Shown one piece after another: positions 2,649 through 12,525 of a DNA stretch of 20,614 nucleotides. This DNA comes from a virus. The notes under the pieces are model-generated. The model saw only the letters and a list, made by a program, of their open reading frames with translations, was not told the origin of the DNA and searched no databases. The translations under genes were made by a program, and so were the position numbers. The DNA lies in the UHGV virus genome UHGV-0225178, one strand, 5' to 3'. The first letter of the stretch is position 1. The number at the start of each line of letters is the position of its first letter.

Positions 2649-3122
2649 TTACGGCGTTTCTGTGGCCTTTTTAAAGCGTTTTCTGATTTCGTCCATGATC
2701 TCCTGTTCTGCCACCTGATCAAAGCCCATATACGGACGTGCGCCAATGGCCGCCGGTCCCGGTGGCATACCAGGCAGGCCACCCCACTGATGAATGGCTG
2801 CATAAGGTTCATTTGATCCAATCAGCGCCCAGGTATCGCCATAATCCGTGGTCAGGCGGCGGGCCAGATCGCCGTTCAGCGTCAGGATTTTGCCGGGCGT
2901 GTATCCCTTACGGGTACGCCACTCACGGTAAGGATCTGACCAGTCATGCCAGCGTTCACCATCCGGCTCTTTTTCCTGCTCAAACGCCATTTCTGACGAT
3001 GACAGAAGACTCGCCGCCACACTGCGGGCCAGGTCTTTTCCGCCGCCCACAAACTGAAGCCGGGCAAACACCCGCTGGAGACGCGCAACGTCCACCACCA
3101 CGGCCGCATCAATGGATGACAT
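2649..3122 (-). CDS. G: Virion morphogenesis protein, Mu gpG-like
   Basis: 157-aa ORF at the Mu G position (between F and I); GGAG 5 nt upstream of the ATG at 3122. Confidence 0.65.
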   Translation of the reverse strand: MSSIDAAVVVDVARLQRVFARLQFVGGGKDLARSVAASLLSSSEMAFEQEKEPDGERWHDWSDPYREWRTRKGYTPGKILTLNGDLARRLTTDYGDTWALIGSNEPYAAIHQWGGLPGMPPGPAAIGARPYMGFDQVAEQEIMDEIRKRFKKATETP

Positions 3123-3243
3123 ATTGTCTCCGCATAAAGGATGAATATAAAATAAACAGGCGGTCAGTGTACGCTTAACTGGTAAAGTCGGTGCCTGCCT
3201 CCGGGTGGATCATGTATGCGGGTTCGACCCCCGCCACTGACCG

Positions 3244-4575
3244 TTAATCAATTTGTCCTTCCAGCACCTCAAGCATTCCGCCCCGGATATCCGATTTCAG
3301 CTTCTCCATATTGATAACCCGGTAAGCATTCACAATCACATCCAGTTTATCGGGCTGACGTTTCAGACTGTACGGTGCATTAACGGCAATCTGCACACTG
3401 CCATCCTGATTTTCCACGATATACATCAGATTGTTGTGCCGTTTGTCCCACAGTACCGCTTTTGGCTTTGCCAGCATTGCCGGTAAGCGCCCGAAGTCCT
3501 CCGGCATCAGGGCGATGCCGTCATTCTGATGTTTCACACTGTCCGCATGGAGCACATTTTTACCGCTCATCGCCAGCAGGCGGGCCGGTGGCGTTCCCGT
3601 CCGGCTTTCCACCGCCTGAGCAATACTTTCGGTCATAAAGCCCAGCGTGCGGATATCGTTACCACCTCGCCGGGTTTTCATGATGTTTTTTGCCCAGATG
3701 CGGAACGCCAGCTGCCGCTCCGGGCTGTTATTCATCTCCTGCACCACCATTTCCCGTAACGCCGGGCTTTTCACCTCGATCAGTTTGCGGATCAGCGCCT
3801 GGTCTGTGCCGAACGCTGCCGAGCCGGGGTTATATGACCAGCCCACATCCGGTGTCATGGTTCTGGTGCCATCTGAATATGTGGTCACCGGCATTTCTCT
3901 GACTTCTCCGGTCTGTTTATCCACGCCAGCCTCAACATTGCGGGTGGAGAGATGATCCTGACCGGATGAAACGGATAACCCCATCGCATCCAGACGGGCC
4001 TGAGACAATGGCCGGACACGGCAGCGACAGTTCCAGCCATTAGGCGGGTAGTGAGTATTCCAGAACGGATCGTCATAGCGGAATACCAGCCCGTTAAGGG
4101 CGGAATGCGCCGGGCGGGTGCGGCTGTCCATGACCGCCACATACTGCCAGAACGGATGCGTGTCCGTGTTGTTCATCATCTGCGTGTAACGCCCGGCATT
4201 GTAAGCCACACGGGTGTTCACGTTGTAAATCAGCGCCAGACGACGGGGACTGCCCAGTTGCACTTCTTCCGCGTTACCGTCGCTGTCCACCACAATCTGC
4301 TTTCCCCACCATCCCAGCTTTTGCAGGCGTGGCGTCAGCGTGCGGATAAATTCTTTCTGTGAAATTCCCTCATCAATGGCCCGTTGCATTTCGGCATGTA
4401 GGGTGGTCACCACATCCAGCCGTGCTGTTTTTGCTGCCGTGAATGAGCGGGCGTGCACATCCGCGTCTGTTTCGAACCAGTTCCAGCTGATATGCGCCCC
4501 TTTGGCGCGGAAGTATGCCACCGCCTCTTTTGAGGGAAGCGTGGCGGCATAACCTAAATCAATCCCCTGAGCCAT
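3244..4575 (-). CDS. F: Head morphogenesis protein, Mu gpF-like
   Basis: 443-aa ORF directly downstream of and overlapping the portal gene, as in Mu (portal H then F). Confidence 0.7.
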   Translation of the reverse strand: MAQGIDLGYAATLPSKEAVAYFRAKGAHISWNWFETDADVHARSFTAAKTARLDVVTTLHAEMQRAIDEGISQKEFIRTLTPRLQKLGWWGKQIVVDSDGNAEEVQLGSPRRLALIYNVNTRVAYNAGRYTQMMNNTDTHPFWQYVAVMDSRTRPAHSALNGLVFRYDDPFWNTHYPPNGWNCRCRVRPLSQARLDAMGLSVSSGQDHLSTRNVEAGVDKQTGEVREMPVTTYSDGTRTMTPDVGWSYNPGSAAFGTDQALIRKLIEVKSPALREMVVQEMNNSPERQLAFRIWAKNIMKTRRGGNDIRTLGFMTESIAQAVESRTGTPPARLLAMSGKNVLHADSVKHQNDGIALMPEDFGRLPAMLAKPKAVLWDKRHNNLMYIVENQDGSVQIAVNAPYSLKRQPDKLDVIVNAYRVINMEKLKSDIRGGMLEVLEGQID

Positions 4576-7859: not shown

Positions 7860-8441
7860 CTACGCCTTACCAAGCAGCATCTGCCTGATACGGAATTCTA
7901 TCTGCTCGCTCATGCCATCCACGCCGCGCAGCTCATCGGTGACCGCGTTCGCCATCTCTTCAGCAAATGCGGCCCGGATTTCTTTTTCACGCTTAATGCT
8001 GCGCTCGGCGGCACTTTCCGCACGCTGTGCCGACAGGAGGATGTCCTTAATAAGGCGCATATCCACATCGCTGTCGCTGTTCAGGGATTCGGTGGCAGCA
8101 CGCAGACGGCGGTACATCAGGGCGCGGGACATTTCCAGAATCAGTGCCGTGGTTTCACCAGTTGGCTTGTCCCCCAGTTCGGCCATCATGGCTTTTGTCT
8201 GCTCGCGCAAATCACGCAGGTTACGGGCAATCAGCTCATTACGGGAGGCTTCCCGGCTGATGGCCGCCGGTGAAAGCTGCTGCTCTTCCGGCAGGCCTGC
8301 CTCACGGATCAGACGGTTGATTTCCTCGCGGATCTGGACCTGCGTCAGGCGTTTTTCACGCAGCATTTCCAGCAGCGGCTTACGGATGCTGTCGGGGAGC
8401 AAATCCACCTTGCGTACACGGCCACGCGTTGGCTTATCCAT
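7860..8441 (-). CDS. Mu gp27-like protein (putative small terminase / DNA-binding packaging protein)
   Basis: 193-aa highly charged, helical, Arg/Glu-rich ORF immediately upstream of the large terminase; AAGGGGG SD 5 nt before the ATG at 8441. Confidence 0.55.
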   Translation of the reverse strand: MDKPTRGRVRKVDLLPDSIRKPLLEMLREKRLTQVQIREEINRLIREAGLPEEQQLSPAAISREASRNELIARNLRDLREQTKAMMAELGDKPTGETTALILEMSRALMYRRLRAATESLNSDSDVDMRLIKDILLSAQRAESAAERSIKREKEIRAAFAEEMANAVTDELRGVDGMSEQIEFRIRQMLLGKA

Positions 8442-8443
8442 CG

Positions 8444-8734
8444 TTACCCCCTTGCGCGTGGTTTCTTCACACCCGGAACAGTGGCACGACCTTCCGCCAC
8501 ATCCTGACCCCGGCCGGTCAGTTCAGCGATGAAATAACCGTTAACAAGCGTGCGCTTACGCACTAGTCCCTGCTCGGCAAGCCAGGCAATGTGGGTGTGA
8601 ACGGTGTCGCGGGACACACGGTGGCCGTAATCATCCAGGCAGTCCTGAAGCACGGATTCACCCAGTTCGCCGTTGTAATCCGCCAGCGACCGCAGAATGA
8701 CAAGACGCTGATCTTCAGTAATGAAATCACTCAT
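8444..8734 (-). CDS. Small hypothetical protein at the Mu gp26 position (possible winged-helix)
   Basis: 96-aa ORF, 2-nt gap to the next gene, ATGA overlap with the upstream gene; no recognised catalytic motif. Confidence 0.5.
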   Translation of the reverse strand: MSDFITEDQRLVILRSLADYNGELGESVLQDCLDDYGHRVSRDTVHTHIAWLAEQGLVRKRTLVNGYFIAELTGRGQDVAEGRATVPGVKKPRARG

Positions 8735-9039
8735 TGTGTTTTTTTCCTTACAGCCTGCTCCAGCAGCAGTTCGTTCTGGTGGGAGACGGATTTCAGGGTG
8801 GCATTGGTGGCCTTAAGCTCACCGCGCAGGGTGGTGATTTCGATATTGAGTCTGTTCACCTCCTGCTGCGTGGGCAGGCCGGAAATCCGGCTCTCCACCC
8901 GCTCAACCCGGTCGGAGAGTTTTTCAAAGGCCTCGCGGGGGACAAAGGTTTTGCGCATCAGCGCCATAAAGATCCCCCCGGCCGTGGCCGTGGCCGACAG
9001 GATCGGCACGACATAATCTTTAACGATACTGACCCACAT
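8731..9039 (-). CDS. Single-pass membrane protein with coiled-coil C-terminus, lysis-cassette associated (Mu gp25 position; possible releasin-like lysis regulator)
   Basis: 102 aa; N-terminal hydrophobic segment VVPILSATATAGGIFMALM followed by a charged coiled-coil region; GGAGG SD with 6-nt spacer before the ATG at 9039; lies in the lysis gene block. Confidence 0.5.
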   Translation of the reverse strand: MWVSIVKDYVVPILSATATAGGIFMALMRKTFVPREAFEKLSDRVERVESRISGLPTQQEVNRLNIEITTLRGELKATNATLKSVSHQNELLLEQAVRKKTQ

Positions 9040-9247
9040 GACCGGCCTCCATGATGTTCTGGCAGTTCACACAACGGATGGCATCCGGCACGGCAACCAG
9101 ACGGGCAGCCGGAATGTCACCCCCGCAGTCCGCGCATACACGCCTGCCTGGTGCTTCCACCACCCGGCGCTTACGTGTCAGCCGGTCACAAAGGGCGCGT
9201 TCTGTTGCCCGCTCCATGACTGCCTGAGCACAATCTGAATCATCCAT
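9020..9247 (-). CDS. TraR/DksA-type C4 zinc-finger protein
   Basis: Motif CADCGGDIP...RCVNCQ (two CxxC pairs) near the C-terminus; start placed at the internal ATG 9247 (AAGGA SD upstream) rather than the ORF-track start at 9313, which would overlap the o-spanin. Confidence 0.6.
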   Translation of the reverse strand: MDDSDCAQAVMERATERALCDRLTRKRRVVEAPGRRVCADCGGDIPAARLVAVPDAIRCVNCQNIMEAGHVGQYR

Positions 9248-9257
9248 ACCTTTTTCC

Positions 9258-9629
9258 TTACTTCGTCTTTCCTGCCGGAACAGCAGTCGTTCCGGCCATA
9301 TCAGTAAATTCATGCTGTCGCTGTGCCTCCAGACGGCGGATGCTGGCCTTGTCCACGTTGCAGTTCTTAATCACCGCCAGCAGTTGCAGGTTGTAAGTGA
9401 CCGATGCGCCAAATGTGAACGGCTGCGGCACAGGAGGGACCAGACAGTCAGCCAGCCATTCAGCGGGGATCGGCACCGGCTTCACCGGCACGTATTTCAC
9501 AGACGGCCCGCCGCACCCGGTCAGCCACATCATCAGGCACAGGAACAGAGGCCGCAGGCACCGTTGCCAGCGACCGGCGGACAATGCTCTGCTGTTCCTC
9601 GCTGTGCTGCATGTTCTGCTGTTTTTCAT
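9258..9629 (-). CDS. o-spanin (Rz1-like outer-membrane lipoprotein), overlapped architecture
   Basis: In the +1 frame of the Rz-like gene: lipobox LTGC preceded by hydrophobic LRPLFLCLMMW and followed by Pro-rich PSVKYVPVKPVPIPAEW...PPVPQPF; starts inside the i-spanin gene and ends beyond it. Exact start (ATG 9629 proposed) is uncertain. Confidence 0.5.
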   Translation of the reverse strand: MKNSRTCSTARNSRALSAGRWQRCLRPLFLCLMMWLTGCGGPSVKYVPVKPVPIPAEWLADCLVPPVPQPFTFGASVTYNLQLLAVIKNCNVDKASIRRLEAQRQHEFTDMAGTTAVPAGKTK

Positions 9630-9810
9630 TCGTGGCCGCCTTGCTGATTTGTGAAATGAGTTGCAGGGTGCGTTGCTGGTTTGCCAGCACCAGACGGGCT
9701 TCGTCCCGTTCACGCACAAGCACATGATTATTGTCCTCAAGGCGCTGCGTCTTCTGGTGCATTCCCCATACCACGGCAGCCAGCACGCTCATCACCCCCA
9801 GCGCCGCCAT
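9460..9810 (-). CDS. i-spanin (Rz-like), N-terminal membrane anchor plus coiled-coil periplasmic domain
   Basis: Start chosen at ATG 9810 (GGAGG, 4-nt spacer) giving MAALGVMSVLAAVVWGM... then charged helical sequence; the ORF-track start at 9981 would overlap the endolysin by 58 nt. Confidence 0.55.
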   Translation of the reverse strand: MAALGVMSVLAAVVWGMHQKTQRLEDNNHVLVRERDEARLVLANQQRTLQLISQISKAATNEKQQNMQHSEEQQSIVRRSLATVPAASVPVPDDVADRVRRAVCEIRAGEAGADPR

Positions 9811-9922
9811 ACAGCCTCCGGCAATCAGGCCCGGTAAGGGATTGTTCACCGCAGCCACAGCACACCCCGCAGCAGCACAACGGCACACAGCAGCGCAATC
9901 ATGAGCGGTCGCCAGAAGCGGT

Positions 9923-10423
9923 TCAGACTTTCGGCAAATCGTAACGACATAACCATTCATCCGCCGAACGGCGGGCCTCAAGACCGGGGAGTTTTACCCC
10001 CTTTGAATAAATCCAGCGGATATACTGCTTACAGGACGCGGGCATCTGCCCGGCATTGATAAGGCGCAGGAGCGTGGAGTTGCGAAAGTTCGTTTCACCG
10101 GCCCAGAAAATCCAGGAGGCCAGCGCCACCGTCTGACCACGGGTAAGCGGCACCTGAACATGACGATCGATAGCCGCAAAGGCCCATTTCATGTCCTTTT
10201 CCAGCAGCGCCAGACATTCTTCATCAGTTTTTGTCATCCCCGGTTTCACATCCGGGCCGGTATGGCCGTAACAGATGGTGAGGGTGCCGGTGGGATCAGT
10301 GTACGTGGTGTTTTCTTTCCCTTCCCAGTAGCCGGTGTAGTGCGTGGCAATGGTGAACGTCCCGGCTCCGGCCAGAACAAGGGCAATCAGCTTTTTACGC
10401 AGGGGCGCGGGGAGTTTTGGCAT
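9923..10423 (-). CDS. lys: Endolysin, T4-lysozyme-like (GH24) with N-terminal SAR (signal-anchor-release) domain
   Basis: Catalytic signature E-x8-D-x5-T (EGKENTTYTDPTGTLT) and a weakly hydrophobic Gly/Ala-rich N-terminal segment LIALVLAGAGTFTIA after a basic stretch, typical of SAR endolysins; position downstream of the Mor/C activator as in Mu. Confidence 0.85.
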   Translation of the reverse strand: MPKLPAPLRKKLIALVLAGAGTFTIATHYTGYWEGKENTTYTDPTGTLTICYGHTGPDVKPGMTKTDEECLALLEKDMKWAFAAIDRHVQVPLTRGQTVALASWIFWAGETNFRNSTLLRLINAGQMPASCKQYIRWIYSKGVKLPGLEARRSADEWLCRYDLPKV

Positions 10424-10494: not shown

Positions 10495-10917
10495 TCAGAA
10501 AAGCCGGGGCTGCGTGCGTTCCTGATGCAGGCGACGCTGGTTGCGGATAACGGAGTAAATCTGCGTCTCTGACATCTGGTAGTGGCGGCGCAGGGTTTCA
10601 ATTTTTTCGCCCTGGCTCCAGCGGGAAAAAATTTCATTATTGCGCAGTTCGGTGAAAAGGGATTCACCGACCGGGAGATAATAACCACGCCCGCCCATGT
10701 ACCCGGCCTGTGCAGCCGCAACTTTACGGGCAAGCATTCCCGCCTGAGCAGGTTCAATCCCCTGACGGTGCAGTTCAGCACTGATCACATCAACCAGGTC
10801 CCGCAGCGTGCCGGGCCAGTTTTTTTTCAGCTCATCATCAGGAATGTCATCCAGACGGTCAATCAGCGCGTGCAGCTGTTCGCTGTCACCAAACATGCTC
10901 ATCTGTGTTTCAGCCAT
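10495..10917 (-). CDS. Mor/C-family transcriptional activator of late genes
   Basis: 140 aa; C-terminal region aligns by eye with what I recall of Mu Mor (R-N-IF, W, G, EL-R-Y, IY-IR-RR, P-L); GGAGG SD with 5-nt spacer; directly upstream of the endolysin. Cannot tell Mor from C orthology. Confidence 0.75.
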   Translation of the reverse strand: MAETQMSMFGDSEQLHALIDRLDDIPDDELKKNWPGTLRDLVDVISAELHRQGIEPAQAGMLARKVAAAQAGYMGGRGYYLPVGESLFTELRNNEIFSRWSQGEKIETLRRHYQMSETQIYSVIRNQRRLHQERTQPRLF

Positions 10918-10950: not shown

Positions 10951-10984
10951 TTAAAATAAAAATCCCGCGCTGTGGCGGGATTTG
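10951..10984 (-). terminator. Rho-independent terminator between the gemA-position gene and the Mor/C-family activator
   Basis: On the minus strand: stem AAATCCCGC / GCGGGATTT with 6-nt loop, followed by TTATTTT, 3 nt after the stop of the upstream gene. Confidence 0.6.
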
Positions 10985-10987
10985 GGG

Positions 10988-11497
10988 TTAACGGGGGAAT
11001 GATTTTTCATACAGCCTGCAAACGCGCTCATAACTCATCACTGTATGTGCTGGCATCCCCAGTACAGACAGCATTTTGCGGCGGTGCCAGCGTTTGAGAC
11101 GCTCCAGCACATCAGAGGCCATCGCGGGGTGTTGCTCCAGCCACTGCCAGTTAGCCACACCTTCGCCGCCGTTCTGCGCGGCCGTCTGCGATTTCACCCA
11201 GTGGTTAAGGGCTGTTTCCCCGCCATCAGAGATAAAGCCCTGCCGGTGCATCACCTTCCAGATGGCGCGAATTTTGGCGGTCACCGTACCCGGTTTTAAG
11301 GCCCGGTTAACCGGTTTCTGACGCACTTTAAAACCGCGTTTTTTGAAAACATCCAGCACGCGGGATAACTCATCCGGTGACATATCCCGGCAACTGGTTT
11401 TGCCGGTGGCTTCCAGTAGTACGGATGTGTAGATCTCATCATCCAGGGCAAGCTCGCGCTTTGCCACATGAATAGCGGATATCAGTTTCCCTCTCAT
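10988..11497 (-). CDS. Hypothetical early protein at the Mu gemA (gp16) position
   Basis: 169-aa ORF immediately upstream of the Mor/C-family gene, ATGA-coupled to the upstream gene; assignment by synteny only. Confidence 0.45.
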   Translation of the reverse strand: MRGKLISAIHVAKRELALDDEIYTSVLLEATGKTSCRDMSPDELSRVLDVFKKRGFKVRQKPVNRALKPGTVTAKIRAIWKVMHRQGFISDGGETALNHWVKSQTAAQNGGEGVANWQWLEQHPAMASDVLERLKRWHRRKMLSVLGMPAHTVMSYERVCRLYEKSFPR

Positions 11498-11790
11498 GCT
11501 GTATCAACACTCCTGCTGATATGATAGATATTATTTTCCCGATCGAGCTGAACCCGATACTCCGGAGGAATCACAAAAATATTAAAACCATCATCAGTTT
11601 TTATTCTTGAGTAGTATTCCCCCTTATGATATCTGGCAAGTGCATTAATCAGAGAAGTCGTCGCCAGCCCAATCAGGTATTTTTTATGAAAAATACTGAT
11701 AACTTTCCGGCACAGCCATCGTGTAATGACGAATGCACCGAAAAACGATGTGATATATAAACACCAGAACAACTGCGAACTACTGTCCAT
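11494..11790 (-). CDS. Small membrane-anchored protein (single N-terminal TM helix), low-GC insert
   Basis: 98 aa; TM segment LFWCLYITSFFGAFVITRWL followed by basic residues; AAGGAGA SD 7 nt before ATG; markedly AT-rich versus flanking phage genes. Confidence 0.6.
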   Translation of the reverse strand: MDSSSQLFWCLYITSFFGAFVITRWLCRKVISIFHKKYLIGLATTSLINALARYHKGEYYSRIKTDDGFNIFVIPPEYRVQLDRENNIYHISRSVDTA

Positions 11791-11805
11791 TATCTTTCTC
11801 CTTAT

Positions 11806-11940
11806 TCAGTCTTCTGCGGCATTCGGCACAGTCATCAGGGCTTTCAAATGTATCCGGCTCGCGATTATGAGCCAGATATAACCACCGCCTACATATACTG
11901 ATATTATCGCCTGTTTTAAAAAATGATGCTTCTTAGCCAT
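11806..11940 (-). CDS. Possible 44-aa hydrophobic micro-protein in the low-GC insert
   Basis: ORF found by hand translation (MAKKHHFLKQAIISVYVGGGYIWLIIASRIHLKALMTVPNAAED) with a central hydrophobic segment; weak RBS; below the ORF-track length cutoff. Confidence 0.2.
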   Translation of the reverse strand: MAKKHHFLKQAIISVYVGGGYIWLIIASRIHLKALMTVPNAAED

Positions 11941-11968
11941 CAGAGGGCGCGCCCATCCAGCGGGTAGA

Positions 11969-12301
11969 CTATTCATTTACTTTATCCTCCATACTGGACA
12001 GAATCATCTGTATTAATGTCGGGCGTGGAGATATACGCATTTCATTAAGCGTCTGAAGGGCAGCAACAGCTGCCTGTTTATCGGTGCCTTTGGCAATTTC
12101 CGCAAGAGAATGCACAATCCATAACGGACTTAACGCCACGACTGAATCCAGAATCATGTCATCCATAATAATTTCTGGCACATCCAGTTTGTCATACTCC
12201 TTATCCATAAAAGAAACGATTTTTTCCACATCTTCCGGTTTCATGCCTCCGGCGATGAGAATTTTTCTATATTCATAAGACGATCTTAATTCAATACTCA
12301 T
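11969..12301 (-). CDS. Small acidic soluble protein, low-GC insert
   Basis: Start placed at ATG 12301 (AGGAG with 6-nt spacer) instead of the ORF-track start at 12343; Asp/Glu-rich, no TM segment. Confidence 0.55.
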   Translation of the reverse strand: MSIELRSSYEYRKILIAGGMKPEDVEKIVSFMDKEYDKLDVPEIIMDDMILDSVVALSPLWIVHSLAEIAKGTDKQAAVAALQTLNEMRISPRPTLIQMILSSMEDKVNE

Positions 12302-12339
12302 ATTCATCTCCTGTAACGCTGACAAGGACGTAATTTTTC

Positions 12340-12525
12340 TCATTTATGTTTTCCAGTAATACGGATATATATGTCGATAAGAAGATTCATAATAAACAGG
12401 AAGAGCGACATCCTGATAAAGAACCATATATCTGGCATCATGGACAGATTTCCTGTAACCGAAAATATAAAACCAACCACCCCAACTGGAACGATAATTG
12501 CGAAAAGTATAAGTCGCTTTATCAT
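12340..12525 (-). CDS. 61-aa two-TM hydrophobic mini-protein, low-GC insert
   Basis: Two hydrophobic segments (LILFAIIVPVGVVGFIFSV and FFIRMSLFLFIMNLLIDIYI); ATGA stop-start overlaps on both sides. Confidence 0.5.
   Translation of the reverse strand: MIKRLILFAIIVPVGVVGFIFSVTGNLSMMPDIWFFIRMSLFLFIMNLLIDIYIRITGKHK

Follow-up and report, generated by a model that had tools for sequence, protein, structure and literature searches.

The window analyzed here, a stretch of 20,614 nucleotides from the virus genome UHGV-0225178, belongs to a Mu-like prophage whose genes lie on the minus strand, as judged from the listing of its open reading frames (ORFs) and from family scans, and our subject is the lysis cassette found at positions 8731-10423. 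These limits, given by an initial annotation of the same DNA, coincide exactly with the stop codon of a gene encoding a DUF2730 protein and the start codon of an endolysin gene. Five genes had been named in this interval, encoding an endolysin, an inner-membrane spanin (i-spanin), an outer-membrane spanin (o-spanin), a zinc-finger protein and a protein with a single transmembrane (TM) segment, and all five are found there on the minus strand, as established by their ORFs, by matches to Pfam and PHROG families and by the selection acting on them; two gene starts differ from those of the longest-ORF reading and were corrected. Stop and start codons overlap or abut throughout the cassette, and no terminator-like site was found on the coding strand within it. 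The ratio of non-synonymous to synonymous polymorphism (pN/pS), computed over 14-28 distinct relatives, revealed purifying selection in every cassette gene, with in-frame values of 0.16-0.50 (endolysin 0.19, i-spanin 0.28, non-overlapped tail of the o-spanin 0.27, zinc finger 0.50 and DUF2730 protein 0.16) and off-frame values above 1.

The genes of the cassette

The endolysin gene (9923-10423, minus strand) encodes a GH24 enzyme of 166 amino acids, of the signal-anchor-release (SAR) type, which matches PF00959 with an E value of 1.1e-36. Its catalytic triad, E34-x8-D43-x5-T49 as read from the translation, is invariant in an alignment with gp22 of phage Mu and with a distantly related SAR-type endolysin of a non-Mu phage (locus L039). 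The protein begins with MPKLPAPLRKK followed by LIALVLAGAGTFTIATHYTGYW, that is, a basic cluster formed by R9-K10-K11 is placed ahead of a weakly hydrophobic segment of 22 residues (approximately residues 12-33), in which 11 of the 22 positions are occupied by Ala, Gly, Ser or Thr and whose Kyte-Doolittle maximum over 19 residues, 1.39, lies under the usual threshold for a TM helix. Both the basic cluster, which directly precedes the hydrophobic segment as LRK[KR]L, and the segment itself are conserved across the clade. The best match in the PDB is 3HDE, the SAR endolysin of phage 21 (E 3e-26; query residues 5-161 against residues 2-162 of the chain), and since this alignment starts at residue 5 the SAR region is included in it; likewise, the BLASTP alignment with Mu gp22 starts at residue 1. 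The family match, the triad and the composition and hydropathy of the segment bear out the SAR-type N-terminus and the E-D-T signature of GH24 enzymes that had been proposed for this protein. A search of genome contigs with the endolysin gave a single locus, from Citrobacter braakii.

The DUF2730 gene (8731-9039, minus strand) is the fourth annotated gene after that of the endolysin, or the fifth when a small ORF described below is counted, and it stands in a Mu-like phage context that comprises ORFs of the size of transposases A and B, GemA, Mor, gp27 and a Mu-type portal. Its product of 102 amino acids matches PF10805 (E 1.1e-22; 80.4 bits against a cut-off of 24.9), with residues 6-97 of 102 corresponding to positions 3-101 of 102 in the profile and the TM helix included, and displays 34% identity to Mu gp25 over 91 amino acids (BLASTP, E 2e-18). 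Such direct similarity to gp25 corresponds to the "type I" group of Chamblee et al. (PMC9239132). The clade and gp25 have 27 invariant columns in common, including M28-R29 and the block SHQxELLLExAV, and share the junction motif MR[KR]; a further motif, SHQNELLLEQAV, is located at the C-terminus of the protein. The single N-terminal TM helix (residues 10-28, Kyte-Doolittle 1.80), with the sequence VPILSATATAGGIFMALM, is nearly invariant within the clade and rich in the small residues Ala, Gly, Ser and Thr, a composition that would fit helix-helix packing with the small-residue-rich SAR helix of the endolysin. R29 and K30 are located at the membrane junction and R35 after the helix, while the N-terminal flank (K7/D8) is net neutral, and an N-out/C-in topology is predicted, with the bulk of the protein in the cytoplasm. 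The AlphaFold2 model (mean predicted local distance difference test score 73, predicted template modeling score 0.34) consists of three simple helices, formed by residues 2-30, 35-53 and 58-101, and agrees with the helical protein with one TM segment that had been anticipated.

Between these two genes lies the pair of spanin genes. The i-spanin gene (9460-9858, minus strand) starts at the GTG codon at 9858, a column in which relatives from Citrobacter, Salmonella and Serratia have ATG and at which the NCBI Prokaryotic Genome Annotation Pipeline (PGAP) places the identical start, and encodes 132 amino acids. Starts at TTG 9981, which would give the longest ORF, and at ATG 9960 were rejected, as relatives and PGAP use the column of GTG 9858 and the upstream part of the frame has a pN/pS of 2.2-2.9, which indicates that this extension is non-coding. 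With the start so corrected, the description of the product as an Rz-like i-spanin is upheld by a match to phrog_214 (Rz-like spanin, E 7.7e-30) and by an N-terminal TM helix at approximately residues 9-31 (Kyte-Doolittle 2.2-2.45 at residues 12-30), joined to a helical periplasmic domain; no Pfam family was matched.

The o-spanin gene (9258-9629, minus strand) encodes a lipoprotein precursor of 123 amino acids that matches PF23793 (LysC, E 1.2e-16) and phrog_3001 (E 1.8e-40). Its start codon, ATG 9629, falls within the i-spanin gene and is offset by +1 from the frame of the latter (9981-9740 = 241 = 3x80+1), and its stop codon at 9258 is located 202 nucleotides beyond that of the i-spanin at 9460, the overlapped architecture that the initial annotation had described with a tail of about 200 nucleotides. 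The precursor comprises a long signal peptide, with 38 residues before the Cys of the lipobox L-T-G-C, and a Pro-rich mature protein of 85 amino acids with Gly at position +2 (no Asp), and both the ATG at 9629 and the lipobox are conserved across the clade. The start assigned to lysC by PGAP, GTG 9500, was therefore rejected, because it would remove the lipobox Cys. In the RefSeq/PGAP annotation of loci L002 and L003, lysC (3059-3301, equivalent to 9258-9500 of the window) begins at this GTG, downstream of the Cys, and the annotated o-spanin consequently lacks both the signal peptide and the lipidation site. The pair resembles LysB/LysC of phage P2, where the o-spanin, likewise of the LysC family, is encoded in the +1 frame from a start within the i-spanin gene to a stop beyond its end, and combines a lipobox Cys with a mature part rich in Pro. 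It differs from the P2 pair in that the i-spanin belongs to phrog_214 with no Pfam family and in that the n-region of the o-spanin is unusually long.

The remaining gene (9020-9247, minus strand) encodes a C4 zinc-finger protein of the TraR/DksA type, in line with the first description of the locus, as PF01258 is matched with 46 bits (cut-off 24.9), phrog_54 with an E value of 1.1e-17, and four cysteines are arranged as C38-x2-C41-x17-C59-x2-C62 in a product of 75 amino acids. This length corresponds to a start at ATG 9247, the likely one, where the match to phrog_54 begins (residue 23 of the long ORF). The protein is the positional counterpart of Mu gp24, which also displays a CxxC...CxxC pattern, although the similarity detected by BLAST is weak (E 0.005). 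TraR of the F plasmid and Orf73 of phage lambda are DksA-like proteins that bind the secondary channel of RNA polymerase. The present protein is similar to them in size, in its acidic N-terminus (MDDSD here) and in its CxxC-x17-CxxC finger above the PF01258 threshold, and we consider a role as a TraR-like factor of RNA polymerase more likely than one in lysis, even though, in contrast to those of TraR and Orf73, its gene is placed in a late lysis operon.

Relationship to the lysis system of Mu

The lysis strategy of phage Mu was reported by Chamblee et al. 2022 in mBio (PMC9239132). In Mu, gp22 is a SAR endolysin, gp23 and gp23.1 are overlapped spanins, and no membrane protein behaves as a holin; release of gp22 requires gp25, a membrane-tethered N-out/C-in protein of 99 amino acids whose whole length defines DUF2730 and which was accordingly named a "releasin". 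It is two basic residues of gp22, K6 and K7, that make it dependent on gp25, and gp25 was able to release several unrelated SAR endolysins (PMC9239132). The Mu strategy as described in the initial annotation, where a small membrane protein takes the place of a holin in freeing the endolysin, matches this published account.

In the window, every gene from that of the C/Mor activator to gp27 is syntenic with Mu genes 21-27, in the same order and orientation, and belongs to the same Pfam families. The BLASTP identities to the Mu proteins are 40% for C (E 7e-36), 40% for gp22, 24% for gp23 (E 6e-7), 44% for gp23.1, 34% for gp25, 63% for gp26 and 57% for gp27, gp24 being the weak match mentioned above. 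Both systems have an endolysin with no adjoining holin gene, basic residues are clustered in both endolysins ahead of an N-terminal segment of weak hydrophobicity, and both DUF2730 proteins share the N-terminal TM helix, the twin-basic junction and the SHQxELLLExAV block. In contrast, the lysis proteins are only 24-44% identical, the zinc finger is a clear TraR/DksA match here and a weak one in Mu, and a single Mor/C-family gene is found next to gemA, with Mu genes 18-20 absent.

Based on this gene-by-gene homology and on the analogy with Mu, we consider it probable, with good confidence, that the cassette forms the late lysis operon of a transposable, Mu-like E. coli prophage, apparently an intact one, and that it works as in Mu, in agreement with the Mu-type strategy first proposed for it. 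Its full-length match to PF10805, its identity to gp25 and its syntenic position likewise support the earlier proposal of the 102-residue protein as the candidate for releasing the endolysin. By analogy with Mu, the Mor/C activator would switch on a late promoter in the 71-nucleotide spacer upstream of the endolysin gene. The endolysin would then be exported by the Sec system and held inactive in the inner membrane by its weakly hydrophobic SAR segment, with the R9-K10-K11 cluster on the cytoplasmic side keeping it tethered, as suggested by the homology to Mu gp22 and to R of phage 21. The DUF2730 protein, which in this model spans the inner membrane in the N-out orientation and is otherwise mainly cytoplasmic, would act like gp25 and promote the exit of the SAR segment, whereupon the muramidase would refold and degrade the cell wall. 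After loss of the wall, the two spanins are expected to fuse or disrupt the inner and outer membranes, whereas the TraR-like zinc finger would probably act on the host RNA polymerase and not on the envelope. The small TM ORF located between the endolysin and i-spanin genes, encoding 34-36 amino acids, would be an extra component.

Several points weigh against this reading. The releasin candidate is just 34% identical to gp25, and its cytoplasmic domain is net basic, with 14 Lys/Arg against 10 Asp/Glu (+4), while that of gp25 is net acidic, with 9 against 12 (-3). The SAR segment is more hydrophobic than that of Mu gp22 and does not have its run of six Gly residues, and for this reason dependence on a releasin cannot be assumed. 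In principle, the sequence TIA|T after residue 26 of the endolysin could serve as a signal-peptidase site. Most DUF2730 proteins of Mu-like phages are paired with endolysins that have no SAR domain (PMC9239132), and thus the function of the family may exceed endolysin release. The window covers only part of the prophage. Finally, the conserved small TM ORF inside the cassette is absent from Mu, where gp23 overlaps the lysis gene directly, and could act at the membrane step.

The difference in charge has a further consequence. Since the net charge of the releasin cytoplasmic domain changes sign between the two systems, a simple neutralization of the basic tail of the endolysin by an acidic domain is disfavored, and a model of that kind is unlikely to hold for the family as a whole. 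The near-invariant, small-residue-rich TM helix points to an intramembrane helix-helix contact. Such details of charge and TM helix could help in the study of how releasins act.

The small membrane ORF and alternative readings

An ORF of 36 codons (9846-9956, minus strand), with the sequence MVMSLRFAESLNRFWRPLMIALLCAVVLLRGVLWLR, spans the interval between the endolysin stop codon at 9923 and the i-spanin start at 9858, and overlaps the 3' end of the former gene by 34 nucleotides and the 5' end of the latter by 13. In most relatives it starts at ATG 9950 (GTG in two of them), which gives a product of 34 amino acids. The predicted product is a single, strongly hydrophobic helix with an embedded Arg (Kyte-Doolittle maximum 2.3-2.6) and has no Pfam or PHROG match. 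The ORF is unannotated in RefSeq/PGAP and appears as an "uncharacterised protein" in a few GenBank records. A phmmer search against 1.84 billion proteins yielded one homolog of 34 amino acids and one spurious repeat protein, with no longer protein having such an N-terminus, and a sequence-pattern scan of viral contigs recovered contigs of the same clade only.

The nucleotide identity among relatives drops to approximately 76% in this region. The relatives inspected, which come from four genera (Escherichia/Shigella, Citrobacter braakii, Salmonella and Serratia) and one further host, all keep the ORF intact with the single exception of L028, and its conserved core is [FY]WRP-x13-LRG[VA]LWL. Over its 60 non-overlapped nucleotides the pN/pS amounts to 0.43-0.53, while the two other frames give 0.8-0.9 and 2.2-2.9; this coding signature is weak, being comparable to that of the zinc-finger gene but derived from little sequence. 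A conserved RNA structure was considered as the reason for this conservation and rejected, since none was found in the region (consensus fold -6 kcal/mol, covariation term -0.39). In L028 (approximately 3460-3580), an insertion of one nucleotide (CCGAAAAGTCTG) brings the TM part of the small ORF into the endolysin frame, so that the endolysin acquires a hydrophobic C-terminal tail; the insertion may reflect genuine variation or an error in sequencing.

The small ORF bears directly on whether the cassette may be called holin-less. A hydropathy scan of all ORFs combined with Pfam and PHROG searches found no holin-family match among the TM ORFs of the window, those at 9846-9956, 11494-11790, 11806-11976 and 12340-12525 included, holins being a group so diverse that one could escape such searches. 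The statement of the initial annotation that no classical multi-TM holin is visible nearby stands to this extent, but it had overlooked the conserved ORF at 9846-9956. The term holin-less is therefore consistent with the sequence, based on the lack of holin-family matches and on the analogy with Mu, and is made less secure by the presence of the small ORF. Likewise, no holin is annotated in the rest of the prophage of E. coli CI5, which is 99.7% identical to the present one.

Three TM ORFs located 1-2 kb upstream of the cassette, encoding 61 amino acids with two TM helices (12340-12525), 56 amino acids (11806-11976) and 98 amino acids (11494-11790), were also considered as its holin and rejected, as they have no holin-family match and belong to an AT-rich accessory block. 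They are present in 7, 10 and 12, respectively, of 30 relatives that share the cassette, and precede the terminator-like hairpin that divides gemA from the C/Mor gene. In position they resemble genes 19 and 20 of Mu, whose products were shown not to be holins (PMC9239132). The accessory block that holds the three ORFs is of 35-47% GC, and for the interval 11500-12500 of the window (minus strand) the GC fraction is 0.39-0.42, against about 0.56 around it. The block is variable among relatives and looks like a moron or accessory island at the position of Mu genes 18-20.

Systems in which a pinholin acts with a SAR endolysin, such as S21/R21 of phage 21 and the L039 locus, resemble the cassette in their SAR-type GH24 endolysin, R21 (3HDE) being the closest structure, and in the two-component spanin downstream. 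They differ in that their holin gene, with at least two TM helices, is found immediately upstream of the endolysin gene and usually overlaps it. In L039, for instance, a holin-like ORF with two TM helices (279-629) precedes and overlaps the endolysin gene (626-1117), whereas in the window the same position is occupied by the C/Mor transcription activator.

The best supported alternative to the Mu-type reading is that the cassette is not holin-less, and that the peptide of 34-36 amino acids is a minimal pinholin-like or depolarizing peptide, or an antiholin-like regulator, that times SAR release, the DUF2730 protein being an accessory. The location of the ORF within the late lysis operon, its persistence across genera, the frame-specific selection, the hydrophobic helix with its conserved WRP and LRGVLW motifs and a conservation that RNA structure does not account for all favor a translated membrane peptide. 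A precedent for small accessory TM lysis factors is provided by Lcc6 of the Shewanella phage LambdaSo, a single-TM protein outside the triad of holin, endolysin and spanin that is needed for lysis (bioRxiv 10.1101/2024.01.23.576932); Lcc6 differs in being 65 amino acids long, in the location of its gene far from the lysis genes and in acting together with a pinholin. However, the coding signal is weaker than that of the neighboring genes, the most conserved 3' part of the ORF coincides with the Shine-Dalgarno-like GGGGTG and the start codon of the i-spanin, and its own ribosome-binding site is weak. Moreover, the peptide has one short TM helix with no charged C-terminal tail and matches no holin family, and Mu lyses its host with no such gene. 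A likeness to the N-terminal anchor of i-spanins of the DUF2514 type, with [YF]WRP ahead of G[AV]LW, is also seen, although it is weak (tblastn E = 2 against all phages, 16 bits with a hidden Markov model of the small ORF), and the ORF may be the relic of such an anchor from an i-spanin that was replaced. Taking both sides together, we regard this alternative, in which the cassette is not holin-less, as improbable.

The ORF may thus be an accessory membrane lysis factor or such a relic, and it is possible, though we lean against it, that it is translated into a functional component of lysis, either as a minimal depolarizing or timing peptide or by pairing with the releasin or the SAR helix. 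In that case, the term holin-less would not strictly apply to the phages of this clade, and their releasin-based lysis would gain an extra element of control. Since the strategy itself has been known since the 2022 publication (PMC9239132), of which the cassette is a diverged example, only this small conserved TM ORF might hold something new.

According to a further alternative, the endolysin would be secreted with a cleavable signal peptide, or would be a SAR protein able to release itself, and the DUF2730 protein would serve in morphogenesis, in DNA packaging at the membrane or in another late role. The n-region, the h-region and the TIA|T site within residues 1-27 of the endolysin are compatible with a Sec signal peptide, and the DUF2730 gene adjoins the packaging genes gp26, gp27 and terminase; the prevalence of non-SAR partners among DUF2730 proteins and the divergent charge of the cytoplasmic domain point in the same direction. 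Nevertheless, homology to two SAR endolysins proven by experiment extends to the first residues of the endolysin, and its clade-wide LRK[KR]L is the counterpart of the cluster that confers releasin dependence on Mu gp22. The ability of gp25 to act on unrelated SAR endolysins and the almost invariant TM helix of the DUF2730 protein, as expected for contact within the membrane, also speak for the Mu-type reading, and we judge this alternative to be very unlikely. That the cassette has no function and is left over in a cryptic prophage, as are found among the many defective prophages of E. coli and as the partial coverage of the element might allow, can be practically dismissed, given that the ORFs from transposase to major head are all intact, that every cassette gene is under purifying selection, and that the cassette recurs in many complete genomes, one Mu-like prophage probably of its type having been judged intact (see below).

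Surrounding genes and distribution

The order of transcription in the window runs from the transposase-sized ORFs through GemA, the Mor/C activator, lysozyme, i-spanin, o-spanin, zinc finger, DUF2730 protein, gp26-like protein and gp27 to the large terminase, the portal and the head genes. GemA (10988-11497, minus strand) matches PF06252. The gene for the Mor/C-family late transcription activator (10495-10917, minus strand; 140 amino acids; PF08765, E 6.7e-31; phrog_532) is located directly upstream of the lysis operon and is the counterpart of Mu C (gene 21) in both position and sequence. It is the single Mor/C-family gene seen between gemA and the endolysin gene, whereas Mu has both mor and C. 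A strong terminator-like hairpin of 9 pairs followed by a T-run (window 10960-10983, minus strand) is found between the gemA stop codon and this gene, which suggests that the early transcript ends there and that transcription of the activator and lysis genes is separate from it.

At the other end of the cassette, the DUF2730 gene is joined by an ATGA stop/start overlap, within the same operon, to a gene encoding a gp26-like winged-helix protein of 96 amino acids (8444-8734, minus strand; phrog_436), which is the transition point to the packaging genes gp27 (7860-8441, minus strand; PF11985) and terminase.

The cassette is present in 231 of 5,426 complete E. coli genomes (about 4%), in up to 4 copies per genome, many strains of O157:H7 being among them. 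The copies in O157:H7 probably represent Sp18, a Mu-like prophage of O157 Sakai that has been judged intact (PMC2669165). The releasin-based, holin-free design of Mu would be carried, in a form diverged to 24-44% identity, by a prophage resident in this share of the complete genomes of the species. Among its genes, those for the lysozyme, LysC, the TraR/DksA protein and the DUF2730 protein are already labeled by PGAP. At the right end of the near-identical prophage of E. coli CI5, outside the window (L104, 7117-7589), two small genes annotated as DUF1378 and DUF826 adjoin a DUF6645 gene close to the com-like end of the element; both DUF1378 and DUF826 are families usually found in lambdoid lysis regions.

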